Assembly (NCBI GenBank): GCA_965197475.1
Contig: CBDANF010000003.1
Location: 256,001 to 320,000, forward strand
From: Candidatus Poribacteria bacterium
GTDB taxonomy: Bacteria > Poribacteria > WGA-4E > WGA-3G
Reading direction: 5' to 3'
Length of the DNA stretch: 64,000 nt
The notes under the pieces were generated by a model. The model was not told where the DNA came from. It worked only from the letters and a program-made list of their open reading frames with translations, and ran no database searches. Position 1 is the stretch's first letter. Each line of letters opens with the position of its first letter. Shown piece by piece: positions 28,470-63,636 of this stretch. A program made the position numbers and the translations under genes.

Positions 28470-28498
28470 ATAGTATCACACATGTATTATTTTGTCAA
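28470..28498 (-). promoter_or_regulatory. sigma70-like promoter for the tcmP-DUF5131 pair
   Basis: Minus strand TTGACA-N17-TACTAT. Confidence 0.55.
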
Positions 28499-28653
28499 AT
28501 TTTAATTAACTATCTACAAATTCAATCTTTCTTGTGTTGATTACTTAATACTCTCAAAGCAGTTTCAACTTCAGCTGCTAAGTCTTCAGCGGTGAGTTCA
28601 GCAAAAGGTGAAATGCCAGCAGCGGACATCAACTTGAAAACCTCTATCGTAAA

Positions 28654-28977: not shown

Positions 28978-29068
28978 AGGTGTTCTCCTCTCTATCTGTT
29001 GCGCGTTTGCGCTATTAAAGGGCGGTTTTAGGACATCTATGGCCTTGACAAGTTCGTTTTGAAGGTAG

Positions 29069-31810: not shown

Positions 31811-31867
31811 ATTTTACACCCTCCTTTAAGTTCCGTGCTAACATTTTAACACGTCCCAAACCCAATT

Positions 31868-46029: not shown

Positions 46030-46120
46030 ATTCCCCTTTTTTCAATCGGCTATGGATAAGAGCACTATGTCTATAGAAAGGCGGCAACTTTGGTTATTTT
46101 AGATTCGACTATAAAATTTG

Positions 46121-46582
46121 TTAGTTGAATTCAATTTCAAGGATTGCATGGCTCCAAATCTTCCACATACCATTCTCTTCACGAAAAACATGAATTGTAT
46201 CAAGAATGTTATCATTGAATTCCGGTCCAGCCACTTGTTCCGTGGAAAACTTAAATCTGGCGACTGCGTACTCACCATCCTGTCCAATATATCGGAATAG
46301 GAGTAGATCATAATTTAGATCGTAAGTTCCAAACAGAATATTAGCAGTTTTTTCCGTCTGTGAGTAACCGGGAGATTCGGAATGTAGTGTCCCCAACATA
46401 GCATCCAGATCCTCCGTTCTTGTTGCTCTCAGGTTTTCTATTACTAACGCCTTGAGTTCTGCCTCAACATCTTCGTCGGCATCTGCCACAAAATCAGCAT
46501 TTTCAGGTGAGAATGCTACAAAATACAAACACAGAAGTAACATAATTGAGATAGCAGCATAAAACATTTTCATAATTGGCAC
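46121..46582 (-). CDS. NTF2/SnoaL-like domain protein with N-terminal hydrophobic segment
   Basis: EDLDAMLGTLH...FREENGMWKI pattern. Confidence 0.6.
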   Translation of the reverse strand: MPIMKMFYAAISIMLLLCLYFVAFSPENADFVADADEDVEAELKALVIENLRATRTEDLDAMLGTLHSESPGYSQTEKTANILFGTYDLNYDLLLFRYIGQDGEYAVARFKFSTEQVAGPEFNDNILDTIHVFREENGMWKIWSHAILEIEFN

Positions 46583-46754
46583 TCCTCAAAATTTTTGGTC
46601 ATATAATACAAATTAACTGGATTATTAGTTTTCTGATAAGGTCAGCATTGCAAGGAGGACCCAGAGACCTCGCGGGACAAATCGCGTTAATTCGGTATAA
46701 GGTAATTATTCAGCCCCATTGACAGCGAGTTTACAAAACACTCCTAACGCAGTT

Positions 46755-46900
46755 TATAATAACGTGAGTTTGGTAAAAACGAGACTTCGTGCTTCTCGTA
46801 GGGGCGAGCTCCCCTCGCCCGTAGGGGTTAGGCAACCTAACCCCTACGAAAATGTCCGCATATTTTTAGAATGTGCCATATATCAAACTCACGTTATAAT
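46755..46900. mobile_element. MITE-like element containing GTAGGGG REP-like hairpins
   Basis: ATAACGTGAGTTTG ... CAAACTCACGTTAT terminal inverted repeat; internal GTAGGGGCGAG..CTCGCCC and GTAGGGGTTAGG..CCTAACCCCTAC. Confidence 0.75.
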
Positions 46901-46961
46901 ATGATGGGTTCTACTATAGTTTTTAGTGGTGCAACTTATTGCGCAAATGTGCTATGAGAAG

Positions 46962-47735
46962 TTAATCTGCTGCATCGCGTGATCCCTGAATCTCATCATG
47001 CGTTAGGATACGGAATTTGGTGTCTCCAGGTAGGGAGCTATCTAATATACCAGCCTCAATTTCTCCATTCTCTAATTCAGTTTTAATAATTTCGTCTATC
47101 TGTTCGTCTGTTACTTCGGTGTTGTCTTCAGCATCTTCAGAACGTTGGCTTAGTCCTCTACCGACTGCCCATGTTTTGAGTGCCAACTGAAGCGCGTCTG
47201 TAAGGTCGCGTCCCGTATCAGATTGCGCGGCAGCGAGATAGTTTTGCATTGCGTTTTCGATTTCCATGGTGCCGCCAATTACTGCTGAGTCGTGTTGGAC
47301 TTTAACGTTACCATCATAGTTGATATGTGTAAATTGTGTTATGGCATCGCCATTGCCGATTTCAACGAGAAGCATTTTGATAATATATGCTTCACCGACG
47401 ATGGCTTCGAACGCTTGTTTGAAGGTGTGCGCCAAAACATAATGTGTTAATCGGTGCAGGTTTACATCTTCGGTCGCGCTCTGGAAAGCTTGGACGCTTG
47501 CAGTGTCGGTAACAAGCATTCGGAGACGTTCAATGTCGGCAGGGTGTCCGATGGCGGAGAGAGCAATTCGGTCATGAACTTCAAATATTTTTTGAGCACC
47601 TTTGGTAACAGTCAACAAGAGGCTGCCTTGTGCGTAAGGTAGTCCAACAACAGGACTTCCGAGTCTAAGTTGGTCTTCTATGTAGTCGCGCCGGTCCTGA
47701 ATTGCTTCAATCCAACGGTACGGCAGATCGCGCAT
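46962..47735 (-). CDS. prcA: 20S proteasome alpha subunit
   Basis: QDRRDYIEDQLRLGSPVV, KIFEVHDRIALSAIG, YDG; TAATG stop/start overlap with the beta gene. Confidence 0.85.
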   Translation of the reverse strand: MRDLPYRWIEAIQDRRDYIEDQLRLGSPVVGLPYAQGSLLLTVTKGAQKIFEVHDRIALSAIGHPADIERLRMLVTDTASVQAFQSATEDVNLHRLTHYVLAHTFKQAFEAIVGEAYIIKMLLVEIGNGDAITQFTHINYDGNVKVQHDSAVIGGTMEIENAMQNYLAAAQSDTGRDLTDALQLALKTWAVGRGLSQRSEDAEDNTEVTDEQIDEIIKTELENGEIEAGILDSSLPGDTKFRILTHDEIQGSRDAAD

Positions 47736-48607
47736 TATGTAGCCTCCACGTAACAATCTTTTAAGTATTCTTCAGCGAGTGTTTCAACTCCCTGTCTGGT
47801 GATAGTTTTGACAGTCGGAAAAATTTCGGCTTTCGCGTTGTATCCGCTGGTTGCTGCGTCATATTCACTTGCTGTATCAAGCATCCTTAAAATGGTGATG
47901 GTTGCCTGTCGTTGATCCATATTTTCCAACCGAGTTTCACCCCATCTGTCAAGGTAACGTAATACGCCACGGATCCAGATCGAACCGGAACCAGTTGTAG
48001 CGAAATCCACGTTCTCAAAGTGTGCGCCGAGTGCGTCGTAGAAGTAGATTTTACCGCCGTTCTCAGCTTCATCAGTATACGGTGCGTACAAAGCAAAGAT
48101 AGGGATAACCGCACCAATACCTTGCATTGCCATGGGGAGATTTTCACGGATAAGGCGCGAAAGGGTTCGGAGTTTTCCTTCTACGCTGAGTTCTTGGAGT
48201 TGACTTCGGCGGAAATATTGGAAAGAATGTTTTAAAACGCGTGCTATTTCATAAGCGGTCGCTGGTGCCCCAGATATCGCGAGAACAGAATGTGTGTCAA
48301 TCGGAAGGACTTTCTCAGCGCGGTCATGAACAACGGAGGTGCCGGCAGTTGCGCGCCGATCCCCTGCGATGATAATACCTTTTTTGTAACGCATAGCGAT
48401 AACCGTAGTAGCTTCCGTTAACTCAAACGTGGCACCTTGGGTTGGTTTTCCCTGCAATGGCAACTGAAAAGCATCACGCATTGGGTTTTTTGTGCCTTGA
48501 AAAATATCGTACGTTTCAGTTTCCGAGGTGCCGCGAGTCACTTCAGCATCAACTTGCAAGGTGTCAGCGTGTTTTAAAAGGCTGAGAAAGTCGCCTTTAG
48601 GGTTCAT
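47735..48607 (-). CDS. prcB: 20S proteasome beta subunit with propeptide
   Basis: EA-TTVIAMRY...AGDRRATAG...EKV...TGSGS (Thr1, Asp17, Lys33 pattern). Confidence 0.92.
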   Translation of the reverse strand: MNPKGDFLSLLKHADTLQVDAEVTRGTSETETYDIFQGTKNPMRDAFQLPLQGKPTQGATFELTEATTVIAMRYKKGIIIAGDRRATAGTSVVHDRAEKVLPIDTHSVLAISGAPATAYEIARVLKHSFQYFRRSQLQELSVEGKLRTLSRLIRENLPMAMQGIGAVIPIFALYAPYTDEAENGGKIYFYDALGAHFENVDFATTGSGSIWIRGVLRYLDRWGETRLENMDQRQATITILRMLDTASEYDAATSGYNAKAEIFPTVKTITRQGVETLAEEYLKDCYVEAT

Positions 48608-48804
48608 TATTCCCCCGTTCTTTGACGGTATCGCCGAGATTGGTCTTTGTCAACACGGCGCATACGTTTGAGGAGTTCTTGCGTGTCCGGTCTATTGACA
48701 TCAGGACGCTTGGGTGCGTTGCTGTCGTCGCCACCATCGCCGGGTTCAACCGGTTTTACTGGTCGCTGTTTGCGTTCGGGGAAATAGGCAATCTGGTCTT
48801 TCAT
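48607..48804 (-). CDS. ubact: Ubiquitin-like protein UBact (Pup analogue)
   Basis: 65 aa, disorder-like composition, LLKRMRRVD...RRYRQRTGE C-terminus; lies between dop and prcB; AAGGAG RBS. Confidence 0.9.
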   Translation of the reverse strand: MKDQIAYFPERKQRPVKPVEPGDGGDDSNAPKRPDVNRPDTQELLKRMRRVDKDQSRRYRQRTGE

Positions 48805-48858
48805 CAGAAATTCTCCTTAATTTGCTTTGTAGAGGCAGTTTCTGGCTTACAAGCCGGG

Positions 48859-50376
48859 TTAGGGTAAACCAAGTTTTTCAACGAGAGTTTGGGGATTAGG
48901 GGATAAGTCAAGAGCTTCATTATATTTTCGTGCGATTTCAGGGTTTGCGAGCGAGTTCATATTAACGGTAACGGACTTACCTTTAATCTCAAAGGTAATG
49001 CTGTCCCATTGAACAGTTTTGATTGAGTCCTCAAACTTGTTGAGGGATTTGCCACGGAAATAAGCGCGTGTGTCCAGTGGAGGTGTGTGAGTAGCGGTAT
49101 GGATCTGTTCATCCGTCACAACCCGTTGCATCTGTAATCCGTAGAATAAACCTTCTTCAAGGTTAATGTTATGGTATTCTAAATCAATGCTTTGCAGCCA
49201 AGGATCGTCCCACGCAATTTCTTCTGATTCAACAAAGGTTTCCAGCAACCACTTTTTTGCAACCCAATCAAGTCGGTCTGTAAGAACCATCGGGTCATTT
49301 TCAAGTGCGTCAAGTGTTTCCTCCCACTGTGTTAACACCCAATCGGTGTCGCTATTTTGGTGTGTGAGATGTTTTTGAGCAAGCGCAAGATACTCGCGTT
49401 GATGGTCAATAGCACTAATTATTTTGCCATCAACTTTCTGTAGAATCCATTGATACGTCTGGTCGTGCGAAATCGTTTTGATGGTATCAATCGGGTTTGC
49501 GATTGCGAATGTCGTAGGGATAAGCCGCTGTTCAATCAGGTCAATAACAAGAGCGGTTGTGCCGATCTTGAGTGCCGTGGCATATTCGGACATGTTTGCG
49601 TCACCGACGATTCCGTGAAGTCTGCGGTATGTAGCAGGGTCAGCGTGCGGTTCGTCCCGTGTGTTGACAATAGGACGTTTGTGCATTGTATCCACACTCG
49701 CTTCAACGTGAAAGAAATCCGAGCGTTGTGTGAGTTGGAAATGTCCGGGTGTTGCGAGGCCTGCTTCGGTTTCAATGCCTATCTTACCTGCCCCCGCGAA
49801 AATTTGTCGCGTGACGAAAAACGGCAGGATGCAAGCTTTGAGGTAATCAAAAGGCACTTCGCGCGCCATGAGATAGTTATCGTGGCATCCGTAACTATGC
49901 CCGTAAAAATCAGTATTGTTTTTGTATAGGATGACGCGTTGCCCAAGTTCTTCACTACGGCTTTCAGCACATTTCTGGAGTATCCGTTCACCGGCTTTGT
50001 CGTGTGCGACCAGGTCAAAAAGACTTTGACATTCCGGTGTTGAATATTCCGGATGCGCGTGGTCATTATAAAGCCTGGCACCGTTGATAAGGATGCGGTC
50101 ACTTTTAATCTCCCGAAAGGAACGTCCCGGTTGCTTGGCAAATCGCTCGCGGTCGCGTTTTTCTTCCTCTACTTCATCGGGATGATTATTGAGATGTTTT
50201 GCTCGGAAACCACGTTCATCTCGAAACGGATCTTCGCCATTGTAATCCCAGAGCGGCAAGAACGGGTCGCGCCGATAATTCTTTATCAGATCAATGGATT
50301 CCTTGACGGTATCGATCTGTTCAGCGTTTTCAAGGGTGATGCCGTATTCGGTTTCGATTCCAAAAAGTCTGTGCAT
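48859..50376 (-). CDS. dop: Depupylase/deamidase Dop (PafA2 family)
   Basis: GIETEYG, NGARLYNDHAHPEYSTPEC, YKNNTD, GCHDNYL, RPIVNTRDEPHAD. Confidence 0.9.
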   Translation of the reverse strand: MHRLFGIETEYGITLENAEQIDTVKESIDLIKNYRRDPFLPLWDYNGEDPFRDERGFRAKHLNNHPDEVEEEKRDRERFAKQPGRSFREIKSDRILINGARLYNDHAHPEYSTPECQSLFDLVAHDKAGERILQKCAESRSEELGQRVILYKNNTDFYGHSYGCHDNYLMAREVPFDYLKACILPFFVTRQIFAGAGKIGIETEAGLATPGHFQLTQRSDFFHVEASVDTMHKRPIVNTRDEPHADPATYRRLHGIVGDANMSEYATALKIGTTALVIDLIEQRLIPTTFAIANPIDTIKTISHDQTYQWILQKVDGKIISAIDHQREYLALAQKHLTHQNSDTDWVLTQWEETLDALENDPMVLTDRLDWVAKKWLLETFVESEEIAWDDPWLQSIDLEYHNINLEEGLFYGLQMQRVVTDEQIHTATHTPPLDTRAYFRGKSLNKFEDSIKTVQWDSITFEIKGKSVTVNMNSLANPEIARKYNEALDLSPNPQTLVEKLGLP

Positions 50377-50440
50377 TATTCGCGTCTTTCTATGGTATTC
50401 AGACAGTAATATGATTGAATCTACGGTGAAAGGTGAAGAA

Positions 50441-52222
50441 TTAAATCACTGGGCTCGGTGCTCTCCGAGGCTCCTTCTTTTCAGACTGAATAGGTGTAAT
50501 TTTGACAACATTTACGGGATCATAATCAAGGAGTTTAAGCCAATCCTCAGTAGCCTCTGTCGGTGGGAAAATGTCGTTTTCACTATATTCTGCATTGAGT
50601 GCGTCCAAAAGATCATTTATGGAGATGCCGGTCTCAGTAGTCGGGTCTGCGATTGCTCGTTTCATGGCAGATTCTTTTGCTCTCTGAACAATAGACTCAA
50701 TAATCGCACCACTACAGAGATGACCGCGGTAGAGAATGTCTCGCCTACCATTGCGGAGCGCGACTTCAAGGAATCGGTTTTCAGCTGTTTCGCGATACAT
50801 TTCATCAACGACCTGTGTTATCAAACCGTCAACGACCTCTTCGTCTGCGGTTTCACCCGGTTCCGTTTCAATGGGAAGTTCTGGGGTTAGGTAGATACTG
50901 AAAATATCCTTGGCAGCGTCTTTATTCGGACGAGTTACTTTGATTTTTCTGTCAATTCGTCCCGGACGAAGGACAGCCGGATCAATTAAGTCGGGTCTGT
51001 TGGTTGCCAAAATGATGACAACCTCTTGCAACGGCTCAATACCGTCCATTTCTGCACAGAACATCGGTACGAGTGTGTTAGAGATACTATGTGACCGCAT
51101 AGCGCGGCGGGTTCCCAAAATGGATTCTGCTTCATCAATAAAGACAAATGCCAGTTTGCCTTCAGCGCGTTTTTCTCGTGCTGCCTGAAAGATTTCTCTG
51201 ACCTTCCGCTCCGATTCACCCAACCACATATTGAGAATTTCAGGACCTTTAATATGAAGAAAGGTGCCTTCAATCTCTTCTCCTGTCTCTGTTTTGAGGC
51301 GTTCGGTTAAGTTGTAAGCAGTCGCTTTTCCAATAAGGGTTTTACCGCAACCGGGAGGACCGTGGAGAAGAAACCCTTTCGGTACAGTATACTGAAACCG
51401 CTTGAAAAGTTTAGGATGCAAAATTGGTTGTTCAATAGTATTCTTAATTCGCTGGATAGTTTCGTCAAGTCCGCCAATCTTCGTCCATGGAATTTGCGGC
51501 ACTGCTTCAAGCGCGTAGTCGTTGTGTTCTTTTGAGGCGATCCGTTCAATGGCAACTTTTAAACTGGCATCAAGGCGGACTTCGTCACCGGACTTTAACT
51601 TGACATCTGCCAGGTCGGCAGCGCGTTCTATAATAACGGATTGAAGACTCGGTTCAGACCCAACGCGTAGCCTGCCATCAGGAAGGACCTCGGCAATTTT
51701 AGCAATTGGTCCCGATTCTGTATAGCCAAGTTCCCCCACAACAACAAAAGCTTCGTTAAGGAGCACGCTAACACCTTTTTTGAGGTTTTTTGTGTCTAAT
51801 TGCTGGTCAACATTAGCATAGTATTCGGAGCCGCTAACAGTGACGCGCGCTGTATCGTCTTTGGGTATTGCGAGAAGAGTTCCAATGCGGTTTGCTGGTT
51901 CAGTCAGTTTATCAATTTGTTCTACCATCTCATCGCGTATGCGGATTGCTTCCTGCTCAACGGCTCGGACCCTTTGCCGAAATTCACCTTCATCATTGAT
52001 GATGGAGCGGCGCAGTTCTACTAACATCCGTCGTCTACGGTCTTCCACAGGAGTTTCTGAGATGATGAGATGAATCAGTCGCAGGGAATAGCCGGAACTT
52101 GCCTTGTCTTCATCAATATTCTCATCTTCATCCTCATCCAGTTCCAACTCATCCTCGTCTTCAAAAAAATCATGCTCGTCGGGACCCACGCCAACATCGC
52201 TAAACGTCTTCTTATCGTACAT
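50441..52222 (-). CDS. arc: Proteasome-associated AAA ATPase ARC/Mpa
   Basis: Coiled coil and OB regions, Walker A GPPGCGKT, KGPEILNMWLGESER, Walker B FIDE, ATNRPDLIDPAVLRPGRID; GAGGAG before ATG 52222. Confidence 0.92.
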   Translation of the reverse strand: MYDKKTFSDVGVGPDEHDFFEDEDELELDEDEDENIDEDKASSGYSLRLIHLIISETPVEDRRRRMLVELRRSIINDEGEFRQRVRAVEQEAIRIRDEMVEQIDKLTEPANRIGTLLAIPKDDTARVTVSGSEYYANVDQQLDTKNLKKGVSVLLNEAFVVVGELGYTESGPIAKIAEVLPDGRLRVGSEPSLQSVIIERAADLADVKLKSGDEVRLDASLKVAIERIASKEHNDYALEAVPQIPWTKIGGLDETIQRIKNTIEQPILHPKLFKRFQYTVPKGFLLHGPPGCGKTLIGKATAYNLTERLKTETGEEIEGTFLHIKGPEILNMWLGESERKVREIFQAAREKRAEGKLAFVFIDEAESILGTRRAMRSHSISNTLVPMFCAEMDGIEPLQEVVIILATNRPDLIDPAVLRPGRIDRKIKVTRPNKDAAKDIFSIYLTPELPIETEPGETADEEVVDGLITQVVDEMYRETAENRFLEVALRNGRRDILYRGHLCSGAIIESIVQRAKESAMKRAIADPTTETGISINDLLDALNAEYSENDIFPPTEATEDWLKLLDYDPVNVVKITPIQSEKKEPRRAPSPVI

Positions 52223-52729
52223 TGTGAACGTCTCCTCATACAGAAGGGGTGACTTTACGATAGTTTTTACCACATTCTAATCTATTTTGCTAATTTTATC
52301 GCATGTTAGCAAATGTAATCAACGATTCTTGATTTTTTAGCAGATTCTGCTAAAAAGTTGACTCAACTGCGGTAATTGTCATTAGTTTAACATATTTCTA
52401 AAATCGATGCAAGTTAAATAGTTGGTTGTTTCGCAATAGTTGGTTGTTTCGCAAATTTGTTCTGCCTGTAATCCTTATCTGTCTTAAAATGTAAAAGAGA
52501 CCATCGTAAAGTTTGTGCAGTTTATCATGTATTATTATACGATGCAAGTTAAAAGGACTTTTTAACTTGGTTTTTGTTGCGATTTACGGAGTTTTTTGGA
52601 GACAAGTGATAAGAGACGCACAATGAATTGCGCGACGACAAACGCAGCAGCCTAAAAGATAAGGGCCCGTGAAGCGCGTCACTAACCTATGGTGAAAGAT
52701 CAAAAATTATAAACACACCTCATTTAATT

Positions 52730-53282: not shown

Positions 53283-55044
<1,762 letters not shown>

Positions 55045-55115
55045 CGGTGCGGGACAACACTATCCTACCACGGCAACTTGCCACAGTTAGTTTTTCTGGT
55101 TTTTTGCATTTTAAT

Positions 55116-55144
55116 TTGACATTTGCCAAGAATGGTTGTATCAT
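55116..55144 (+). promoter_or_regulatory. sigma70 promoter of the tRNA pair
   Basis: TTGACA-N17-TATCAT. Confidence 0.65.
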
Positions 55145-55160
55145 TATATATTGTGAATTT

Positions 55161-55233
55161 GAGCCGTTAGCTCAGCAGGTAGAGCATCTGACTTTTAATC
55201 AGGTGGTCACAGGTTCGATTCCTGTACGGCTCA
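55161..55233 (+). tRNA. tRNA-Lys(TTT)
   Basis: Acceptor GAGCCGT/ACGGCTC, anticodon arm CTGA-CTTTTAA-TCAG, GTTCGA T-loop; CCA not encoded. Confidence 0.96.
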
Positions 55234-55252
55234 TTTAATTTTGTTTCTATAT

Positions 55253-55327
55253 GCCCCTGTCGTCTAGCCTGGCCAAGGACACCGCCCTTTCACGGCGGCG
55301 ACACGAGTTCAAATCTCGTCGGGGGTA
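55253..55327 (+). tRNA. tRNA-Glu(TTC)
   Basis: Acceptor GCCCCTG/CGGGGGT, anticodon arm CCGCC-CTTTCAC-GGCGG, GTTCAA T-loop; CCA not encoded. Confidence 0.96.
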
Positions 55328-55337
55328 TTTGAAAAAG

Positions 55338-55369
55338 AAAACCAACCCTATATTGTGGGTTGGTTTTTT
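55338..55369 (+). terminator. Intrinsic terminator, probably bidirectional
   Basis: AAAACCAACCC-loop-GGGTTGGTTTTTT between the tRNAs and the convergent ferredoxin gene. Confidence 0.8.
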
Positions 55370-55444
55370 GTTTATAGTAATATCTAAAAATACCTTCGTA
55401 TTTTCTTTGTATTAACGTATGAATTCAAGAGATATAGGTGAATA

Positions 55445-55903
55445 TCAATCTGCAGCCTCAGCAAGCTCCAACAACACTGGCGATTCGACTCGGATAGCGT
55501 CTTTGATACAGACCTCTTCACAAAGCAGGCAGCCGACACAATCCTTTGGTTTAACAAGTTCGCAGATACCAAAGAAACTATCGGCATGTTCATTTGTTAC
55601 CGGATCTTTTATTTCAAGGCACTCCCACGGGCAGATTTGTACACAGAAATCGCACCCAGAGCATAACTCCTCATAAATAACAGCGATGGGGCGATGCGTG
55701 AGACGAGGGATAAATTTACACACTTCCCCGAATTGGTCATGAATCGCTTCCACGGGACAGACCATGCCGCATGCGCCACAATCAATGCATACATCGGGAT
55801 CAATGATGTGTAATTTATTGCGATCACCAGTAATTGCATCAACCGGACATTTACATAAACACTGCAGGCATCCGATGCATTCGTCAGTTATAAAATACGC
55901 CAT
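55445..55903 (-). CDS. Polyferredoxin with four CxxCxxCxxxC motifs
   Basis: CIGCLQCLCKCP, CIDCGACGMVCP, CSGCDFCVQICP, CVGCLLCEEVC; GGAGG RBS. Confidence 0.9.
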   Translation of the reverse strand: MAYFITDECIGCLQCLCKCPVDAITGDRNKLHIIDPDVCIDCGACGMVCPVEAIHDQFGEVCKFIPRLTHRPIAVIYEELCSGCDFCVQICPWECLEIKDPVTNEHADSFFGICELVKPKDCVGCLLCEEVCIKDAIRVESPVLLELAEAAD

Positions 55904-55929
55904 AACAGTTATACCTCCTATGTTCTATT

Positions 55930-58362
55930 TTAGCACAACCCAAGATGTGTAACAACAAGCTTTTCTAACCTTGCACTCCATATTTCAGGTGAATGCACCT
56001 TCCCGTGTCGTGCATCAATGACTTTTCCATCAGTATCAATGAGTATGAAGGCAGGTAGCTTAACTTTACGGGTTCCTGGACCCGATCCGAATCCGAACTG
56101 ATCAGCCAATGCAGCTTGCTGTCCATCAGCATCAGCATAGATATACTGTCCTTGACGGTTTTCCCTGCGAACTACATCGCGCAATGCTTCTGCGTCCCTC
56201 CATCCACCAACATTGACACCAATTACCTCAAATCTATTATTGTGATGTTTTTTGTAAAGTGTGTCAATGTCCGTGAGTTCTTGTTCATTGTGTATGTAAC
56301 CAAAATGGAGTAGGACAACTTTCCCACGAAATGCAGAGGCTGAAATAGGATTTCCATCAACATCAACTGCAGAAAAATCTGGAATCACGTTACCTATGCG
56401 TGCGATATCTGTCCACTTCACAAGTTGTCCAAGTTGTTCTCCTCTTGTACCTACTGAGATGATCTTCCCATCTCTATCAATGAGCCACTGTGAAGGCACA
56501 CTATTAATACCGAAAAACTGTGCGAGTTCGCTTTTCCATCCTTTTCCATCATAGATTTGGGGCCACGGTATCTCATGTTCCTCAATGTATTCGCGTAGTT
56601 CTGTTTCATTCTCATCCAGACTCACACCGATAACATCAAAACCATCTTTGTGATGGTTCTCGTATACCTTTTTGAGATAAGGAATTTCTGGCGCGCAGAA
56701 ACCACACCATTTCGCACAAAAATTAAGAACCAACATTTTGCCATGGTAATCCGAGACCGATACAGGTGTGCCATCAATAGCAACCGCAGAAAAATCGGGA
56801 AGTTGCTTCCCAACCCATGCATCTTGTTTCCATCTAAATTCAGGATGAGGTTCCCACGGATATTTTTGTGCTAATTCGGTTTCTCCCAACGTTTCATAGA
56901 CATCCCCAAGTCCGCGTAGGGCATACCAATCGTCTGGTTCAACATTAAGTCGTTGCTGAAATGCATGTTGCATTTGCTCAATCAAGGGTTTACATTTTGC
57001 AATAAGTTCGGCATTTGCATCAGAATTCCTCATCAGATTCCGATAGATATGGCACGGTGTTCTGCCTACCTCTTTATAAAGTTTTGTCAACCAACCGGAC
57101 AATTCCGATTCACCTTGCTGCTTTGCTCTTTCAAACATTCTCTCAAGGGCAGTAAGTGTCAGTTTAAACAATGGATCAAAGGGGCCATCATAATGACTAA
57201 CTGCAAAAAAACATGTTTCAGCATCTTTGGGAGCCAACGTCATGGCTTGTTCAAGGAAGGTAAGGTCACTATCCGATTCTCCATGACGGACACGTTTACC
57301 CTCCCACACAATGATTACTAACATTTTCACAGCAGCACCGTTTTCAGGTTGTGTTTCAAGTGCCTCTTCAACGAATTCACGTAGTTCCAGATGCATCGCT
57401 TCAGGAAAATTTGAGATGTGCTCTTGAAGTTGTGCTGGCAGCGTTGTTTTACCATCAACAACCCCTGCTTTAATCTTTGTTTTGAAATACTCCAGAAGTT
57501 GTTCTTGATCTTTCTCTGTGAGTCTTCTTGGCGGTGCATGTTTACGGTTTTCAAACGATTTTAGATACGCGTCCCATATATCGGTATGATCGGATATCGC
57601 ATCGACTAAGTCTTGTTGATCCTCCGATTGTTGTCCCAAATTTTTCCGAAATGCAGCCTTTTCCATAGGAACCAAATCTCTACACTTCTTTATCAGGGAA
57701 TTATATCTATCAATTTTCGGACTACTTCCATCAGAACGTGATGAATTTTGAAGGTTATCCGTAAGGTCCCTAAGTCCATCTTTAAGGTGCTTATAAACTG
57801 TGTAGGGGGTTATCCTATGCTGCCAATAGAATGACCTTGCCTCCTGATAACGAGCAGTGTCGTCTTGTTGCGCTGCCCAAGTATATAAGTTTTCAAGTGC
57901 CATGAGAACTTTTTCTCGGTCCGCGATGCCACCGAAAAATCCGCCATTGCATCTATATCTGTCTATCACAACCAAATTCATACACGGGTCTTTCGGTATT
58001 AGCGACATTGACTCATCCACATGTGGATCATTTTTTAAATCCCAGTCTGAAATTTCCACAATTGTGCAAAGTAAGGCTGCTGCGCCATTTTTCGGATCAG
58101 ATTTAAGAAAACTATCGGCTAACGCTCGTAATTTTGGCAGCATCTCTTTTGGAAATCGCCAAAAGTAATTGTGGATACCAGGGGGAAGTGTTGTTACTCC
58201 ATCCGAGACACCTTCTTCAATTTTCGTTTTGATGTAAGCGAGGAGTTTTTCTTGCGTTTCCTCGTCTAATTCTGATATGCCACTACTTGATGAGAGTCCA
58301 AAATTGTAAAGTGAATTGATGAACGTATACCAGAAATCCGTAGAATCGTATTTTTCGAACAT
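55930..58362 (-). CDS. Redoxin (TlpA/AhpC-TSA-like) protein: duplicated helical N-terminal domain plus two thioredoxin-like domains
   Basis: PDFSA..DG.P.S.S...GK occurs twice; first domain has WCGFC and the cis-Pro SVP; second lacks CxxC. Confidence 0.85.
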   Translation of the reverse strand: MFEKYDSTDFWYTFINSLYNFGLSSSSGISELDEETQEKLLAYIKTKIEEGVSDGVTTLPPGIHNYFWRFPKEMLPKLRALADSFLKSDPKNGAAALLCTIVEISDWDLKNDPHVDESMSLIPKDPCMNLVVIDRYRCNGGFFGGIADREKVLMALENLYTWAAQQDDTARYQEARSFYWQHRITPYTVYKHLKDGLRDLTDNLQNSSRSDGSSPKIDRYNSLIKKCRDLVPMEKAAFRKNLGQQSEDQQDLVDAISDHTDIWDAYLKSFENRKHAPPRRLTEKDQEQLLEYFKTKIKAGVVDGKTTLPAQLQEHISNFPEAMHLELREFVEEALETQPENGAAVKMLVIIVWEGKRVRHGESDSDLTFLEQAMTLAPKDAETCFFAVSHYDGPFDPLFKLTLTALERMFERAKQQGESELSGWLTKLYKEVGRTPCHIYRNLMRNSDANAELIAKCKPLIEQMQHAFQQRLNVEPDDWYALRGLGDVYETLGETELAQKYPWEPHPEFRWKQDAWVGKQLPDFSAVAIDGTPVSVSDYHGKMLVLNFCAKWCGFCAPEIPYLKKVYENHHKDGFDVIGVSLDENETELREYIEEHEIPWPQIYDGKGWKSELAQFFGINSVPSQWLIDRDGKIISVGTRGEQLGQLVKWTDIARIGNVIPDFSAVDVDGNPISASAFRGKVVLLHFGYIHNEQELTDIDTLYKKHHNNRFEVIGVNVGGWRDAEALRDVVRRENRQGQYIYADADGQQAALADQFGFGSGPGTRKVKLPAFILIDTDGKVIDARHGKVHSPEIWSARLEKLVVTHLGLC

Positions 58363-58588
58363 AATTTTCTCCGAGGCGGATATTCAATTAGGATGCCTTT
58401 AGTATAAATTAGTATAATGTTTTAACTTTTGTGTGTCCAGTGAATATTTACATCTTTTGATAAAAACGAGGGTGTTGTCTAACGAGTGATATAGCGTAGT
58501 TCTTATGGTTGGAACTGGCACCTATACCAAATTAGTTGTTAAGACAACACCTTTAGTTTTTAACTGACAGGTAGTCACTTGATGCTAT

Positions 58589-58852
58589 TTACTGAAAATA
58601 TGCAGCGTTAATCTCTGTGAAATGTTCCCATTCTTCCGGCACATCTTCTTCCATGAAGATAGCCTCAACAGGACATTCTGGCTCACATACACCACAATCG
58701 ATGCATTCTTCTGGATCAATGTAGAGCATGTCTACCCCTTCAAATTCATCAGGTGCATCTGTTGGATGTGGGTGAATACAATCCACAGGACAGACATCAA
58801 CACAAGAGCTGTCTTTTTCGTCAATGCAGGGTTCGCAAATTACATAGGTCAT
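58589..58852 (-). CDS. FdxA-type (7Fe-like) ferredoxin, copy 3
   Basis: MTYVICEPC...CVDVCPVDCI...CIDCGVCEPECPVEAI. Confidence 0.93.
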   Translation of the reverse strand: MTYVICEPCIDEKDSSCVDVCPVDCIHPHPTDAPDEFEGVDMLYIDPEECIDCGVCEPECPVEAIFMEEDVPEEWEHFTEINAAYFQ

Positions 58853-58893
58853 TTTGTTATTCTCCTTTTGTTTTAATCGGAAAGGTTATCAGG

Positions 58894-59175
58894 TTAAATA
58901 CTGAGTTGTTGTTTATTGAAATAATCAGCGTTTTTTTCAATGAAACGTTCCCATTCCTCCGGCACATCTTCATCAAAAAAGATAGCCTCAACAGGGCATT
59001 CAGGTTCACACACGCCACATTCAATGCATGTTTCTGGATCAATGAAGAGTTGATTTACCCCTTCATAGTCATCGGATTCATGCATTGGATTTGGGCGTAT
59101 GGAATCACAAGGGCAAATATCAACACAAGTGCTGTCTTTTACATCAACGCAGGGTTCACAAATTACATACGTCAT
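58894..59175 (-). CDS. FdxA-type ferredoxin, copy 2
   Basis: MTYVICEPC...CVDICPCDSI...CIECGVCEPECPVEAI. Confidence 0.93.
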   Translation of the reverse strand: MTYVICEPCVDVKDSTCVDICPCDSIRPNPMHESDDYEGVNQLFIDPETCIECGVCEPECPVEAIFFDEDVPEEWERFIEKNADYFNKQQLSI

Positions 59176-59230
59176 TTGTTATTTCTCCTTTTATTATATT
59201 CTGTTCGGCTAAATTGTCAATTGTTATTTT

Positions 59231-59494
59231 TTATTGAAAATAATCAGCGTTGATTTCTATAAAATGTTCCCATTCTTCTGGAACTTCATCTTCAATGAAG
59301 ATAGCTTCAACTGGACATTCATGTTCGCATATAGCACAATCAATGCATTCTTCTGGGTCAATATAGAGTTGGTTTACCTCTTCAAATTCGTCGGGATTGT
59401 TTGTCGGATGTGGGTGAATGCAATCCACAGGACAAGGGTCAACACAAGCACTGTCTTTTACATCAATGCAGGGTTCGCAAATTACATAGGTCAT
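59231..59494 (-). CDS. FdxA-type ferredoxin, copy 1
   Basis: MTYVICEPC...CVDPCPVDCI...CIDCAICEHECPVEAI. Confidence 0.93.
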   Translation of the reverse strand: MTYVICEPCIDVKDSACVDPCPVDCIHPHPTNNPDEFEEVNQLYIDPEECIDCAICEHECPVEAIFIEDEVPEEWEHFIEINADYFQ

Positions 59495-59533
59495 TTTAGA
59501 ATTCCTCCTTTATGTGTAAGTTGTCTTTTCATG

Positions 59534-60349
59534 TTACCAGGGCCGGGATGAACTTACCCGTGCGTTTTTCCAATTAATTGTATGTGTCCAGCCAGGCTTC
59601 ACACCCTTTTTAGGTCCCATACCGTAAGCCCCTACACGATAATCAATCCCTGTCATAAACATTAAGCGGGATGCCAATTCCTTAGCCTCTGCGACATCTA
59701 TTTCAACTTCTCTGTCTTTCTCTAATTGAAAACCGTTATGGATCAATCTCACTTGTAGTCCGTGCTTTCCAATTTTAGATTGTAAACGTCGTGCTGCTTC
59801 TTGGACTTTTGAAAACTGGACATCAGGAGCGTGCTCCTTTGGATATAGGCTAAAACCCGCATGGCGGACATGAAAAACGTTATCCCCGTCTCCAAAACAA
59901 CCTTCAAGCATCATACTCTCAAGCAATGTTTCAAGTTCTATCATATCACCAGTGCGGAATTGTGTCGGATCATCTGGGAGAGCTACCACTGTAAACCATA
60001 AGTGAAGGATATTGAAAGGTAGTTCTCGTTCTTTAATTAAGGATCGGAGCACTTCCTTAACTTCCGCGATACGAGTTGAATTTGACGCTAAATGTTCCAC
60101 TTCGTCATATATTTCAGATATACTACGCCCTCTGGAAAGACACCAATGTCCACTGATTGTAAAATTTTTTAATTTTTCCGCGATTTTATCCCCTTTCCAC
60201 CGTCTAATTATATCCTCCGTGTATGATCTCGTTGTTGGGTTGTCATCTTCAGAGATCAATAGAGGACCTTTTTCGACAGTGGAGATAGGTATCTTGATAT
60301 CCTTAATTAGAGACCTTATCAATTCCGTGACTTCATTCGGGTTCATCAT
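59534..60349 (-). CDS. Hypothetical HxGFxL-repeat protein, paralog C
   Basis: AAGGAGG RBS; clear homology to the two upstream ORFs. Confidence 0.8.
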   Translation of the reverse strand: MMNPNEVTELIRSLIKDIKIPISTVEKGPLLISEDDNPTTRSYTEDIIRRWKGDKIAEKLKNFTISGHWCLSRGRSISEIYDEVEHLASNSTRIAEVKEVLRSLIKERELPFNILHLWFTVVALPDDPTQFRTGDMIELETLLESMMLEGCFGDGDNVFHVRHAGFSLYPKEHAPDVQFSKVQEAARRLQSKIGKHGLQVRLIHNGFQLEKDREVEIDVAEAKELASRLMFMTGIDYRVGAYGMGPKKGVKPGWTHTINWKNARVSSSRPW

Positions 60350-60385
60350 TCATCCTCCTTTCTTAATGGTTCTTGCCAAACTAAA

Positions 60386-61228
60386 TTAATAGTAAGGTCC
60401 GGATGCACTTACCCTTACAATTTTCCAATTAATTGCGTTTGTCCACCCGGGTGGAATTTCATCCACACTTAACTGCATACCATACCCGCTTCCTCCAGGA
60501 TAGTTAATCCCTGTCATAATACTTAGTCGAATTGCCAACTCTTTTGTTTCGGAAACATGTATTTCAAATTCGCGCTTCTTCTCTAATACAAAACCTTCAT
60601 GGAGTAGACACACCTTCAGATCATGTTTTTCCAATGCGGACTGAAGAAATTTCATCATTTCTTGAACTTGCGAAAATGAGATGTCGGGTTTATCGTATTC
60701 TCTATCATCCATTCGATTTAAACTAAAACCGCTATGGCGTACCCGTACATTTAAGTTCTCCTTTTCAAGCAATGTTTCAAGTTCTATCATCTCTTTGTTA
60801 CGATATTGTATCGGGTCTTCTGGGAGAATAATCACGCTAAAAGCACGGTTGAAAATCTTAAAGGGCAGACCTTGTTCTTTAATCAAAGATTCCAATACTT
60901 TTCTAACTTGCGGAACATGAGATGTCTCAAGAGCAAGACGTTCTATCTCTACACAGATATCAGATACGGTTATTCCCACAGATGTCCGATAGTTTCTATG
61001 TTTACCATAAATGCCGATAGATTCTCTCGCCTCTTGCACCTCTTGAGGAATATCGTCGTATTCACCTTTATCAAGTTCCATCCACTGTTGAGCAATATCT
61101 TTAAGCCGTTCTCTTGGCACTTTAGTATCGTCTTCACTAATCAATAGAGGTCCGCAATTGGACGCAACTGGTAGAGAAGATTCTGCAGTTAAAGATTCCA
61201 ATAATTTCTTAACATCGTTGGGATTCAT
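60386..61228 (-). CDS. Hypothetical HxGFxL-repeat protein, paralog B
   Basis: AGGAGG RBS; shares GPLLISEDD, MIELETLLE, KELAxRLxxMTGIxY and PGWTxxINWK with paralog C. Confidence 0.8.
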   Translation of the reverse strand: MNPNDVKKLLESLTAESSLPVASNCGPLLISEDDTKVPRERLKDIAQQWMELDKGEYDDIPQEVQEARESIGIYGKHRNYRTSVGITVSDICVEIERLALETSHVPQVRKVLESLIKEQGLPFKIFNRAFSVIILPEDPIQYRNKEMIELETLLEKENLNVRVRHSGFSLNRMDDREYDKPDISFSQVQEMMKFLQSALEKHDLKVCLLHEGFVLEKKREFEIHVSETKELAIRLSIMTGINYPGGSGYGMQLSVDEIPPGWTNAINWKIVRVSASGPYY

Positions 61229-61276
61229 AACTCAACCTCCTAATGTCGAATCAGGTTGCAGTAAAGTTTAGTCTTT

Positions 61277-61999
61277 TCAACTTTTCCATTGACGCCGTGG
61301 AAAACGCCATAAAGAAATCCGGATATTAGCACTTGTGCAGTTTGTAGATTTGAATGTATCCTCGGAAGGTGGCGTGTGATATGAATCCAACCTATAGTTG
61401 ATGCCGAGGGTATCATCTATCCGTTTTGCAATCTCACTAACCTGTGAGAGAGGTATGTTAGATTCAGAAGTTTTCTCTAATCTGAAACCTCGGTGGAACA
61501 ATTTTGCCTTGATGCGTTTCTCCTTTAATATCGTCTCATAGCGATTTGCCACCCCTTCAAACTGCGATGCCACCACCTTAACCCCTGCTTGTTTTTCTAA
61601 CCGAAATCCACCGTGAAGCATTTTGACAGGATAGCGCGTCGTGTCATCCTCAGCCAATGTCACCAATCGGAATCCGTGATCGGTAAAACGGATAGGCAGA
61701 TTCTCTTCCGCTATGAGAGATTCAAGGATGACTTCAACTTCTAAAGATTCTAACAATTCTTTTGCAGACGAGTCCGCATCGGTTTTGGAATAGAATTCCA
61801 TAATATCTTCTCGACCAGGATGACGCGTGTAGATTTTACCCTCTTTGTTCCATTGATGGATAACATCTTTGATGCGCCCCTCTGTGGTATAATCCGATGC
61901 CCCTAAACTTTGAATAGCGGATATATCAATTACCTCAATCGGGATCCCTTCCTCCACAATTAAAGTTTTTAATAATTCCTTGACATCATTCGGTGTCAT
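61277..61999 (-). CDS. Hypothetical HxGFxL-repeat protein, paralog A
   Basis: AAGGAG before ATG 61999; MTPNDVKELLKTLI start; DHGFRL, HGGFRL, HRGFRL. Confidence 0.8.
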   Translation of the reverse strand: MTPNDVKELLKTLIVEEGIPIEVIDISAIQSLGASDYTTEGRIKDVIHQWNKEGKIYTRHPGREDIMEFYSKTDADSSAKELLESLEVEVILESLIAEENLPIRFTDHGFRLVTLAEDDTTRYPVKMLHGGFRLEKQAGVKVVASQFEGVANRYETILKEKRIKAKLFHRGFRLEKTSESNIPLSQVSEIAKRIDDTLGINYRLDSYHTPPSEDTFKSTNCTSANIRISLWRFPRRQWKS

Positions 62000-62018
62000 G
62001 TTAGCTCTCCTTTTAGAG

Positions 62019-62054
62019 TAAGAATGCAAATCGGTTGAAAAGGTTACATAAAAA
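62019..62054 (-). promoter_or_regulatory. ECF-type promoter box ahead of the paralog/ferredoxin genes
   Basis: Minus strand TGTAAC-N16-CATTCTTA; 33/36 identical to 62795-62830. Confidence 0.7.
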
Positions 62055-62070
62055 ACACTGTTTTGCGAAT

Positions 62071-62685
62071 TCAATCTGTTTTCGGATTTTCTTTTTTTCT
62101 AAATATATGGTCGAATTCGCCGGGATATTCCGCTTTCATCCAAGCGGTGACCTTTTTCTTGGCACGATACAATCGAACCTTAGTCGCTGACAATGTTATT
62201 TCTAAAGTCTTGGCGATTTCTTCCAGCATCATTCTGGGATTGGCAAGTTTCAACTCAAACACTTCTCGTTCCGACTTTGATAACCGGCGCGCTAAGGCAT
62301 AAACGATCTCTAATTGTTCTTTGCCAATAATACGATATATAGGCGAACGATGCTCAAGGTCTACCAGATGTGCTTCAGGATTCCCTTCAAGCGATCCGAT
62401 TTCGAGTTTTCTCTGGTCTTCACGGAAGTGTGCTGCAACGAGTTGATATGCAATACTGAACAGCCAACTTGAAAAACTTTTGGGATCCCGAAGGGTTCCG
62501 AGATTTTGATGAACCTTAATAAACGTCTCTTGCACAAGGTCTTGCGCGGTTTCCCAATTGCCAACGCGCCTATAGAAAAAACTGAGGAGGGGACCTTCGT
62601 ACCGATGATAAAGGATTTCAAATGTCCCATCATCAGCATCGGCTAAATTTTGATCCACCAATTCCTCGTCGCGAAACTCATCCAT
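62071..62685 (-). CDS. ECF RNA polymerase sigma factor
   Basis: AQDLVQETFIKV, FSSWLFSIA, LSKSEREVF...EIAKTLEITLSATKVRLYRA. Confidence 0.92.
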   Translation of the reverse strand: MDEFRDEELVDQNLADADDGTFEILYHRYEGPLLSFFYRRVGNWETAQDLVQETFIKVHQNLGTLRDPKSFSSWLFSIAYQLVAAHFREDQRKLEIGSLEGNPEAHLVDLEHRSPIYRIIGKEQLEIVYALARRLSKSEREVFELKLANPRMMLEEIAKTLEITLSATKVRLYRAKKKVTAWMKAEYPGEFDHIFRKKENPKTD

Positions 62686-62794
62686 TGTCGTTCCACCCTC
62701 TGTTAACATCACTATTTTATTTACACTCAACTATAGAGAAGCATATAATTAATGAAACACTTGATATTGTAAAATTGAAATTTGAATTTAAATA

Positions 62795-62830
62795 TAAGAA
62801 TGCAAATCAGATAAAAAGGTTACATAAAAA
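62795..62830 (-). promoter_or_regulatory. ECF-type promoter box upstream of the sigma gene (putative autoregulatory)
   Basis: Minus strand TTTTTATGTAACCTTTTTATCTGATTTGCATTCTTA. Confidence 0.7.
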
Positions 62831-63078
62831 TGAAGTGTTCAATTTGCGGCAGTCTGTTCGGAGGTGAAAATTTTTCGTCATGCTCATTATGTGGAATTTC
62901 AAGGACAGTTGCAAGTTTTTTTGAAGAAAACCGATTCCGTTGATAACTAAAAAAAGATGGTAATAACTGTATGTGTATCTATCAACTCCACAAAGGAGAT
63001 AAACCGATAACAAATAATATGAAAGTCCTAATTTGATTAAAAATCGATGAAATTATTTTGTTTGGAGGTAATATCATT

Positions 63079-63636
63079 ATGTTCAAGGAATTAAAAAAGA
63101 TAAGCGTTGTGCTTGTGTTATTGGCATGTTTTATTGGATGCGGCGACGTTGACCCAACTCCGGTGTCACCTCCAGTTTATTTGGCAATTAACCAGGTTTT
63201 AAAACGGTGGCGAGAAGGTTATGAAACTGAAGATATAGAGACTTATATGAGTGCTTACTGGTCGCAAGGTTTCCGATACGTCTCAGACTGGGGAACAGAC
63301 GGCGATAAAACTGATGATCTCATATTTGATGATATTCGAGACGAACGTGATTCTGCAATTCATGTCTTTAGCCAATTTCAGGATATTGAAATAGAACTTT
63401 CTATTCCTCCCGAAATAGCCATGAATAAAGATGGCACGCAAGCCGAAGTCCGAAATCATTACCGAATCCAAGGCTTTGTGGCAGATGGCGAATCACTTGA
63501 AGGCGGATTTACGGGGTGGTTCGCGGAAGGCGACAACCTGTTTATCTTTGAAAAAAGAGATGACGAATGGCGCATCATTGAATGGTATGATGAGGCTTTC
63601 AATGATGAAGAAATTCGCATTGCTAATAACCTATAG
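63079..63636 (+). CDS. NTF2/SnoaL-like lipoprotein
   Basis: GGAGG RBS, lipobox FIGC, EDIETYMSAY...FEKRDDEWRIIEW. Confidence 0.7.
   Translation: MFKELKKISVVLVLLACFIGCGDVDPTPVSPPVYLAINQVLKRWREGYETEDIETYMSAYWSQGFRYVSDWGTDGDKTDDLIFDDIRDERDSAIHVFSQFQDIEIELSIPPEIAMNKDGTQAEVRNHYRIQGFVADGESLEGGFTGWFAEGDNLFIFEKRDDEWRIIEWYDEAFNDEEIRIANNL

Follow-up and report, generated by a model that had tools for sequence, protein, structure and literature searches.

Poribacteria are an uncultured phylum of sponge-associated bacteria, and gene regulation in these organisms is almost unstudied. A 64,000-nucleotide (nt) stretch of contig CBDANF010000003.1 from Candidatus Poribacteria, which we refer to as the window, carries nine open reading frames (ORFs) at positions 55445 to 62830, all on the minus strand: an extracytoplasmic function (ECF) sigma factor, three paralogous proteins (A, B, and C), three ferredoxins (fdx1, fdx2, and fdx3), a redoxin, and a polyferredoxin. 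What does this sigma factor control, and do the nine genes act as one system? A first-pass annotation made from the sequence had treated them as a single ECF-controlled redox module. We found that the nine genes are not one operon but several transcription units, and that the association of sigma factor, paralogs, and ferredoxins is conserved across the phylum. The paralogs match no described family by sequence or by fold.

The basic description of the locus held up. The nine genes are co-oriented, in the proposed order and place. Intergenic gaps, read from the sigma gene to the polyferredoxin gene, are 71, 48, 39, 39, 55, 41, 226, and 26 nt; the annotation had put them at about 25 to 70 base pairs (bp) except for about 225 bp before the redoxin, and we obtained 26 to 71 nt and 226 nt. 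Comparison with orthologs gave ratios of nonsynonymous to synonymous substitution (dN/dS) of 0.03 to 0.46 for all nine genes, indicating purifying selection, and they are therefore real genes rather than chance frames. By hydropathy, none of the nine proteins has a transmembrane segment or signal peptide, in agreement with their proposed cytoplasmic location. Genes for tRNA-Glu and tRNA-Lys lie on the opposite strand just downstream of the polyferredoxin gene, and an Rfam scan of positions 55000 to 63200 found nothing else above the gathering score.

Conservation of the locus in Poribacteria

A search with a paralog profile through contigs representing one genome per species retrieved 17 loci, 16 of them from Candidatus Poribacteria. 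The 17th, from Zapsychrus, was a weak 54-residue match and was set aside. One locus (L016) is a fragment at a contig end and was left out, which leaves 15 complete related loci, designated below by L numbers where they have to be told apart. BLASTP of the window proteins against the ORFs of these loci found the order sigma factor, A-type paralog, further paralogs, ferredoxins in 15/15. Since the association is present in every one of them, paralog homologs lacking the sigma factor or the ferredoxins were not encountered. The suggestion that homologs keep their neighbors thus stands for sigma factor, paralogs, and ferredoxins; it does not extend to the redoxin, which adjoins in only 5/15 loci, behind a gene for a sigma-transmembrane-WD40 protein described below.

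The number of intact paralogs per locus ranges from two (L012, L013, and L014) to nine (L004). Ferredoxins number three per locus, except in L014, which has two, and L002, which is cut off by the contig end after fdx2. Because paralog number varies from 2 to 9 while ferredoxins stay at 2 or 3, the proposal that three paralogs and three ferredoxins form cognate pairs fails. Although paralogs have been gained and lost extensively in the array, all 15 loci preserve the junction between paralogs and ferredoxins. In a maximum-likelihood tree, 65 paralogs fall into well-supported subfamilies of old origin, each found across species: A (18 rows, support 100/100), B with an E-like branch, C with an "AYPY-tail" group F, and D; the window set is A, B, and C. 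As the subfamilies are old and present across species, the differences in copy number reflect differential retention rather than recent amplification. The arrays also bear signs of recombination. Positions 9742 to 9921 of L004 hold a 59-amino-acid (aa) chimeric ORF that joins a ferredoxin N terminus (MTYIICEPCIDVKD...) to a C-type paralog tail (...GWTHTINWKHARVSSSRRW), and positions 12000 to 12261 of L005 hold ferredoxin fragments. A likeness of the paralog tail (V.PGWT..INW) to the ferredoxin C terminus was considered and rejected, as BLASTP gave no alignment.

The family is restricted to the phylum and kept in every complete locus examined. Among 5.8 billion proteins, it comprises 36 clusters at E ≤ 1e-3, none of them named and none with a Pfam domain. 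The paralog profile gave 15 matches at E ≤ 1e-3, 8 of them at E ≤ 1e-10, against 1.84 billion cluster representatives. A phage or plasmid origin was dismissed, since tblastn with paralog B matched nothing in either collection. We found no publication on this system in the literature on Poribacteria combined with ECF sigma factors, ferredoxin, oxidative stress, or thioredoxin. A term search of a comparative genomics study of sponge symbionts with a broad host range, in which Poribacteria are named (PMC8546597), gave no mention of ferredoxin, sigma, thioredoxin, redoxin, or oxidative stress.

A sharply bounded ECF sigma factor

The sigma gene starts at an ATG at position 62685 (MDEFRDEE), as in 14 orthologs. 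Pfam places Sigma70_r2 at residues 40 to 107 and r4_2 at residues 141 to 193 of the 219-aa ORF, with no r3 at E ≤ 0.01, and the TIGR02937 score of 71.5 exceeds the cut-off of 42.9. The protein thus has the features that define ECF (group IV) factors, namely sigma2 and sigma4 without sigma3 and at most 50 aa between them (PMC7826278). All NCBIfam equivalog and subfamily models score below their cut-offs, and the best match to a solved ECF sigma structure has E = 3e-11 at low identity. Orthologs are at least 63% identical, with a mean column identity of 90%, and the next relatives are sharply lower, at 42% or less. Judged from these comparisons, the sigma factor is a lineage-specific, sharply bounded ortholog group. 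The tail after region 4.2 reads W.MK.EYPGEFD.IF.

No anti-sigma domain was found in the nine proteins by Pfam and NCBIfam, and the zinc-associated anti-sigma (ZAS) motif HxxxCxxC occurs in 0/70 paralog ORFs. The absence of an adjacent membrane anti-sigma gene, pointed out by the first-pass annotation, was borne out: the divergent neighbors of the sigma gene encode exported lipoproteins, one SnoaL-like (185 to 192 aa) and another of 274 to 289 aa. The SnoaL-like gene lies at positions 63058 to 63636 of the window, on the plus strand; its product is 85 to 89% identical in L001, L008, and L013 and 66% identical in L005, and in these four loci the gene is followed by that of the second lipoprotein, which belongs to no known family.

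A shared promoter motif and several transcription units

A 38-nt ECF-type motif (ATGTAACCTTT...CATTCTTA) occurs twice in the window, with 0 copies expected by chance. One copy (P1) precedes the sigma gene and the other (P2) precedes paralog A; they contain a 36-nt direct repeat (62795 to 62830 and 62019 to 62054) that is 33/36 identical. The motif fits an ECF promoter, as it is bipartite, has no dyad symmetry, and at P2 stands at a fixed distance from the Shine-Dalgarno sequence and the ATG. We read its GTAACCT-N17-TCTTA boxes as the likely -35 and -10 elements, and the sigma factor of the locus would be the factor that uses them.

We built a position weight matrix from 19 exact-core sites, 15 of them unique, and applied a threshold of 18 bits. 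In the window and the 15 loci, 34 sites exceed it, all on the gene strand and all upstream of sigma genes, thioredoxin-like genes, or A-type paralogs, with none elsewhere. Fifteen of the 34 lie outside the training set and have A or T in place of G before CATTC. Each A-type gene has the motif directly in front of it, and this holds for the second copies in L003 and L004 as well. A P1-type site stands before the sigma gene, or before the thioredoxin-like gene or genes preceding it, in 15/15 loci, and both the P1 and P2 positions are retained in all of these. ATGTAACCTTT and CATTCT.A are invariant in 16/16 first (upstream) sites. In L014, the leader that separates P1 from the thioredoxin-like gene (6838 to 7158) contains 8.8 tandem copies of a 37-nt unit.

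The ferredoxin genes are divided between promoters. No promoter motif is found upstream of fdx1, which follows the last paralog after 39 nt. Before fdx2, the sigma-70 consensus TTGACA-N16-TATAAT is exact in 12/15 loci, has CATAAT in L010 and L011, and is absent from L014; of the 14 exact matches to the consensus on either strand of the 656 kb of locus sequence, these boxes account for 12. In the 226-nt gap after fdx3, a long hairpin is predicted to form just ahead of a U-run (z = -2.87). All 13 aligned sequences retain its 13-bp basal stem and the T-run; there is 1 compensatory pair, so this demonstrates sequence conservation and is not proof of structure. A covariance model finds exactly one copy in each of 14 loci and in the window, in every case just 3' of fdx3; L005, which was outside the model, is among them, and no copy lies elsewhere in 372 kb. 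The element is about 135 nt long, has an interior of two types, and matches no Rfam family; it may be more than a terminator.

Neither the redoxin gene nor the polyferredoxin gene has a sigma-type motif, and the redoxin gene has a weak sigma-70-like match at 58411 to 58439. Given the separate promoter of fdx2-fdx3 and the hairpin with its T-run after fdx3, redoxin and polyferredoxin form a separate unit. The claim of a single nine-gene module thus has to be given up.

A paralog family with a probably new fold

Paralogs A, B, and C are 27 to 47% identical to one another. Paralog A starts at position 61999 and has a tail of basic and aromatic residues (...SLWRFPRR); one helix present in the other paralogs is missing from it. 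The first-pass annotation could not match the three to any named family, and we came to the same result: searches of Pfam, NCBIfam, PADLOC, and PHROGs matched no family, and PDB profile searches with the whole protein, the C-terminal half, and the N-terminal half gave best E values of about 0.06 to 0.2. A permissive Pfam scan of 32 members returned MAD in 7, TraI_middle in 5, and PSP1 in 3; these matches were below threshold and scattered, and we dismissed them as noise. A 1,130-aa Photobacterium protein (P0044) gave seven weak repeat matches (E = 7.6e-8) with only 12.6% in hhalign and was not used.

Internally, the paralogs are built from duplications, with hhalign probabilities of 94% for N1 versus N2 and 96% for C1 versus C2. 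AlphaFold2, run on paralog B with 32 sequences, gave a confident model (mean predicted local distance difference test score 86.2, predicted template modeling score 0.83), in which low confidence is limited to a variable loop at residues 51 to 80. The model consists of four helix-plus-beta-hairpin modules with extra strands. Foldseek, run with the whole-chain model against 350,542 PDB chains and BFVD, returned 0 matches at E ≤ 1e-3; the best had E = 0.02, with template modeling scores of 0.3 or less. Matches to ACT, SOUL/HEBP2, and BmrR had probabilities of 0.18 or less and are leads only.

Of the polar residues, just W49, E118, H165, H210, and E230 are shared by 60 or more of the 63 intact paralogs. 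In the model, hairpins 162-172 and 204-216 each carry an H-x-G-F motif at their tight turn. HbYX-type proteasome activator tails and the HxT/S motifs of 2H phosphoesterases were considered and dropped, since the residue positions do not fit. The paralogs are mostly acidic (pI 4.7 to 6.8, A-type up to 8.5) and have no conserved Cys. Their N terminus, M-(N/T)-P-N-D-V, is near-invariant across the old subfamilies (M1 in 63/63, P3 in 62/63, V6 in 62/63), a strictness over residues 1 to 6 that is unusual for the start of a protein. Synonymous divergence (dS) of the paralog genes (59534 to 61999) from their orthologs is 0.47 to 0.77, compared with 0.6 to 1.4 for the sigma factor, ferredoxins, and redoxin in the same genome pairs; gene conversion or an extra constraint on the mRNA may account for the lower values.

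Ferredoxins, redoxin, and polyferredoxin

The three ferredoxins are mutually 69 to 82% identical. The best solved relative of fdx3, 2v2k_A, aligns end to end (E = 4.5e-25) with all Cys ligand positions matched and a 10-aa insertion. The ligand pattern C-x7-C-x3-CP ... C-x2-C-x2-C-x3-CP is present and invariant among the three, which are thus predicted to be 7Fe FdxA-like ferredoxins; NF045480 scores 91.7 (fdx1), 92.9, and 99.9 bits, all below its equivalog cut-off of 125. The dN/dS of fdx3 is 0.03 to 0.04.

The 810-aa redoxin contains two internal duplications, one of the N-module (29% identity between copies, E = 2e-23) and one of the redoxin domain (34% identity, E = 1e-21). Only the first domain has a CxxC motif, WCGFC at residue 553. 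Pfam AhpC-TSA scores 127.8 bits, and the best PDB match is ResA (4nmu). Maximum 19-residue hydropathy does not exceed 1.03 in either half, and there is no N-terminal signal sequence; in the absence of a signal peptide or membrane anchor, the protein is cytoplasmic. The N-module gave 143 matches at E ≤ 1e-3, and among the 120 listed, all those with a named source are from Poribacteria. For the polyferredoxin, the VhuB and FwdF models score far below cut-off (50.6 versus 600), so that its membership is of the general kind only. Orthologs 89 to 95% identical follow the redoxin in L008 and L013.

Gene neighbors in related loci

In 10/15 loci, one or two genes for proteins of about 440 aa lie between P1 and the sigma gene. 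These proteins combine the N-module of the redoxin with a redoxin domain carrying the classical thioredoxin motif WCGPC (CSPC in one), and by hydropathy all are free of transmembrane segments and signal peptides. The presence of such thioredoxin-like genes behind the sigma promoter supports a role in redox stress.

Downstream, fdx3 is followed in eight loci (L005 to L011 and L013) by a protein of 1,138 to 1,390 aa with one transmembrane helix and WD40 propellers. An N-terminal ECF-like sigma domain is present in five of the eight (L006, L008, L010, L011, and L013) and absent from those of L005, L007, and L009. In the sigma fusions, which are 1,250 to 1,390 aa long, the single transmembrane helix lies near residue 222 and the WD40 propellers follow. 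This sigma-transmembrane-WD40 protein is a separate, membrane-tethered sigma system that is missing at this place in the window. Behind it comes the redoxin in L006, L008, L010, L011, and L013, with the polyferredoxin next where the locus reaches that far (L008 and L013). L007 has a KatG-type peroxidase in the place of the redoxin, and an ORF equal to it in size is present in L009. Elsewhere in the window (18056 to 21181, minus strand), an ECF-like sigma domain is fused to a very large BNR/sortilin-like C-terminal part.

The features of the locus are collected in Table 1, together with those of a complete UBact-proteasome cluster at 44563 to 52273 on the minus strand; its proteins other than UBact score below equivalog cut-offs. 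Farther away (26545 to 34816, minus strand) are genes for a DUF5131 protein, a GMT-like winged helix-turn-helix protein, a 913-aa protein without a family, and a 982-aa protein resembling Eco57I-type methylases; G+C content is lower there, at 0.38 to 0.41, and the region may be a mobile or defense island.

Table 1. Positions of locus features and of the UBact-proteasome cluster in the window
Feature	Position	Strand	Remarks
P1, ECF-type promoter motif TTTTTATGTAACCTTTTTATCTGATTTGCATTCTTATA	62793-62830	-	upstream of sigma gene; presumed autoregulatory
ECF sigma factor	62071-62685	-	204 aa; ~26-aa conserved C-terminal extension
P2, second ECF-type motif copy	62017-62054	-	ends ~20 nt before paralog A ATG, then AAGGAG Shine-Dalgarno
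Paralog A	61277-61999	-	240 aa; directly after sigma
Paralog B	60386-61228	-	280 aa; member used for AlphaFold2 model
Paralog C	59534-60346	-	270 aa
fdx1, predicted 7Fe FdxA-like ferredoxin	59231-59494	-	last gene of presumed sigma-driven operon
Consensus sigma-70 promoter TTGACA-N16-TATAAT	59193-59220	-	fdx1-fdx2 spacer; 12/12 match
fdx2, predicted 7Fe FdxA-like ferredoxin	58894-59175	-	93 aa
fdx3, predicted 7Fe FdxA-like ferredoxin	58589-58852	-	93-94% identical across loci
Structured 3' element, presumed terminator of ferredoxin unit	58452-58588	-	13-bp basal stem, long interior, T-run
Redoxin	55930-58362	-	810 aa; two N-modules and two redoxin domains, second degenerate
Polyferredoxin	55445-55903	-	152 aa; four Fer4 stretches, four CxxCxxCxxxC motifs
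Bidirectional terminator hairpin	55332-55373	.	common to nine-gene side and tRNA-Glu; terminator-like on both strands
Proteasome ATPase	50441-52273	-	UBact cluster
Dop-like protein	48859-50376	-	UBact cluster
UBact ubiquitin-like protein	48607-48804	-	65 aa; NF033388 75.4 bits vs cut-off 35
Proteasome beta	47735-48607	-	UBact cluster
Proteasome alpha	46962-47756	-	UBact cluster
PafA-like ligase	44563-46029	-	UBact cluster

A model for the regulon and its alternatives

Our preferred reading, which we hold tentatively and with slightly less than even confidence, is a cytoplasmic response to thiol or oxidative stress run by a phylum-specific ECF regulon of several transcription units. The sigma factor would recognize a promoter of about GTAACCT-N17-TCTTA before its own operon, resulting in positive autoregulation; in most relatives, the first one or two genes of this operon would be those of the cytoplasmic WCGPC thioredoxin-like proteins. 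A promoter of this type would also drive an operon that opens with the A-type paralog, continues with 1 to 8 further paralogs, and closes with fdx1. Transcribed from their sigma-70 promoter, fdx2 and fdx3 would supply standing 7Fe ferredoxins, boosted by read-through when the sigma factor is active, and transcription of the ferredoxin unit would stop at the conserved hairpin. The redoxin and polyferredoxin would make up the separate downstream unit, tied to the regulon by family rather than by promoter, since their combination of N-module and thioredoxin fold is common to the sigma-controlled genes of the relatives. The paralogs are probably soluble effectors, with a predicted new fold and two invariant His residues at hairpin tips, and the co-transcribed 7Fe ferredoxin is their probable partner. 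We also count the KatG-like peroxidase of L007, or the redoxin, farther downstream in relatives in favor of a stress role. Of the redox stress system suggested at first pass, the redox role gains support from the thioredoxin-like genes behind the motif (10/15 relatives), and the dedicated nine-gene module does not hold.

Several observations weigh against this reading. In the window, P1 has no thioredoxin-like gene behind it, and the redoxin and polyferredoxin genes are without the motif and lie beyond the hairpin. In only 5/15 relatives does a redoxin occupy that position, behind the sigma-transmembrane-WD40 gene. The separate promoter of fdx2-fdx3 means that these two genes may adjoin the others by chance. 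Neither a conserved Cys nor a known cofactor motif is present in the paralogs, and they are mostly acidic, as is the ferredoxin, so that direct docking is not favored; neither their sequence nor their fold connects them to redox chemistry. The assignment of the motif to the sigma factor is drawn from position and conservation.

If the sigma factor has no recognizable anti-sigma factor, could a paralog take this role? The A-type paralog would be a new soluble anti-sigma factor, with the other paralogs as co-sensors or adaptors; it would bind the sigma factor in unstressed cells and, made from its own sigma-dependent promoter, accumulate after induction and end the response. Its gene immediately follows the sigma gene in 15/15 loci and the window and always has its own copy of the sigma-type promoter, the same architecture that was demonstrated experimentally for rshA behind sigH in Corynebacterium glutamicum (PMC3489674). 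No other candidate adjoins the sigma gene, and soluble variants unlike the known ones would escape detection (PMC7826278). However, the paralog ORFs have neither the ZAS motif nor a Pfam or NCBIfam anti-sigma domain, and the A-type protein belongs to one fold family with 1 to 8 co-transcribed paralogs, which is unusual for an anti-sigma factor. Second promoter-plus-A cassettes stand away from the sigma gene in L003 and L004, and over 14 taxa the distance correlation is 0.16 for sigma and A-type compared with 0.56 for sigma and fdx1. We consider an anti-sigma role unlikely. A broader version, in which the paralog family is a new-fold sensing hub that restrains the sigma factor, with the A-type as anti-sigma, B to F as inputs, and the 7Fe ferredoxin pool as the signal, seems to us distinctly improbable; if true, it would represent a "stressosome-like" control of ECF sigma factors with no membrane component.

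The paralogs could also be ferredoxin-dependent metal or cofactor proteins, that is, new small redox enzymes or repair factors, in which H165, H210, E118, E230, and W49 form a putative site reduced by fdx1. The strict conservation of just these five polar residues, the two His residues that flank the tight turn in each of two duplicated beta-hairpins of a confident model, and the ferredoxin gene that always closes the operon would all fit. Yet PDB profile searches and Foldseek found no likeness to any metalloprotein, both partners are acidic, and a paralog content of 2 to 9 between species fits a fixed enzymatic pathway poorly; we rate this, too, as unlikely. Finally, the genes may be neighbors without a common function. 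The sigma factor would then control only the paralog operon, which would have no part in redox and might encode, for instance, proteins for structure, protection, or host interaction, and the ferredoxins, redoxin, and polyferredoxin would be housekeeping genes kept by synteny. A sigma-70 promoter of their own serves fdx2-fdx3, the constancy of fdx3 (93 to 94% identity across loci, dN/dS of 0.03) is as expected of a core gene, and the redoxin and polyferredoxin lie beyond a terminator-like hairpin with variable placement in relatives. Such independence does not explain why fdx1 lacks a promoter of its own and follows the last paralog by 39 nt, why thioredoxin-like genes come directly behind P1 in 10/15 loci, or why the paralog-ferredoxin junction persists in 15/15 despite changes in the array, and we regard it as rather improbable.

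The sharply defined motif offers a handle for mapping the regulon in genomes and metatranscriptomes, and with it a testable approach to a probable stress response of bacteria that have never been cultured. The paralogs are a family with a confident predicted structure and no detectable relatives in sequence or fold, and a sigma factor with no recognizable anti-sigma factor bears on how "orphan" ECF sigma factors are controlled. Should the redox stress reading be true, a stress-specific 7Fe ferredoxin isoform would be layered onto two constitutive ones.

Comparison with known systems

The redoxin shares its fold and CxxC motif with proteins of the TlpA/ResA/tryparedoxin type; unlike TlpA and ResA, it is cytoplasmic, is fused to two N-modules of about 250 aa, and has a second domain without CxxC. 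The 152-aa polyferredoxin has tandem 4Fe-4S motifs in common with MvhB/FwdF-type polyferredoxins. FdxA of Mycobacterium smegmatis (2v2k) aligns over the full length of the ferredoxins with the cluster Cys kept, and the best NCBIfam model is FdxA_Actino; here there is a 10-residue insertion after CPVDCI, and three tandem copies have different promoters. The RsbR paralogs of the sigma-B stressosome are several co-expressed soluble paralogs beside a stress sigma factor. The likeness to our paralogs is an analogy only, with no similarity of sequence or fold and no STAS, kinase, or phosphatase partner in the locus.

Among ECF groups, the ECF238/CorE2-type and ECF29 factors resemble the sigma factor described here in having no detectable adjacent anti-sigma factor and a short conserved C-terminal tail. 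Short tails of this kind have been argued to modulate activity in ECF groups without an anti-sigma factor (PMC7826278); a difference is that neither a Cys nor an RCE/D motif is present in the tail of our sigma factor. A parallel to our preferred reading is offered by the thiol-oxidative stress systems SigR-RsrA of Streptomyces and SigH-RshA of Corynebacterium and Mycobacterium (PMC3489674, PMC3177212, PMC4960319), which pair a cytoplasmic ECF sigma factor with thioredoxin-family regulon genes, as in 10/15 relatives of the locus. Like rshA, the A-type gene lies directly downstream of the sigma gene with its own sigma-type promoter (PMC3489674). Unlike in those systems, no ZAS anti-sigma factor is found among the 70 paralog ORFs, and the motif GTAACC...CATTCTTA departs from their consensus GGAAT-N16-19-GTT (PMC3489674). 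The output of the regulon also differs: here it would be a new protein family together with a 7Fe ferredoxin.

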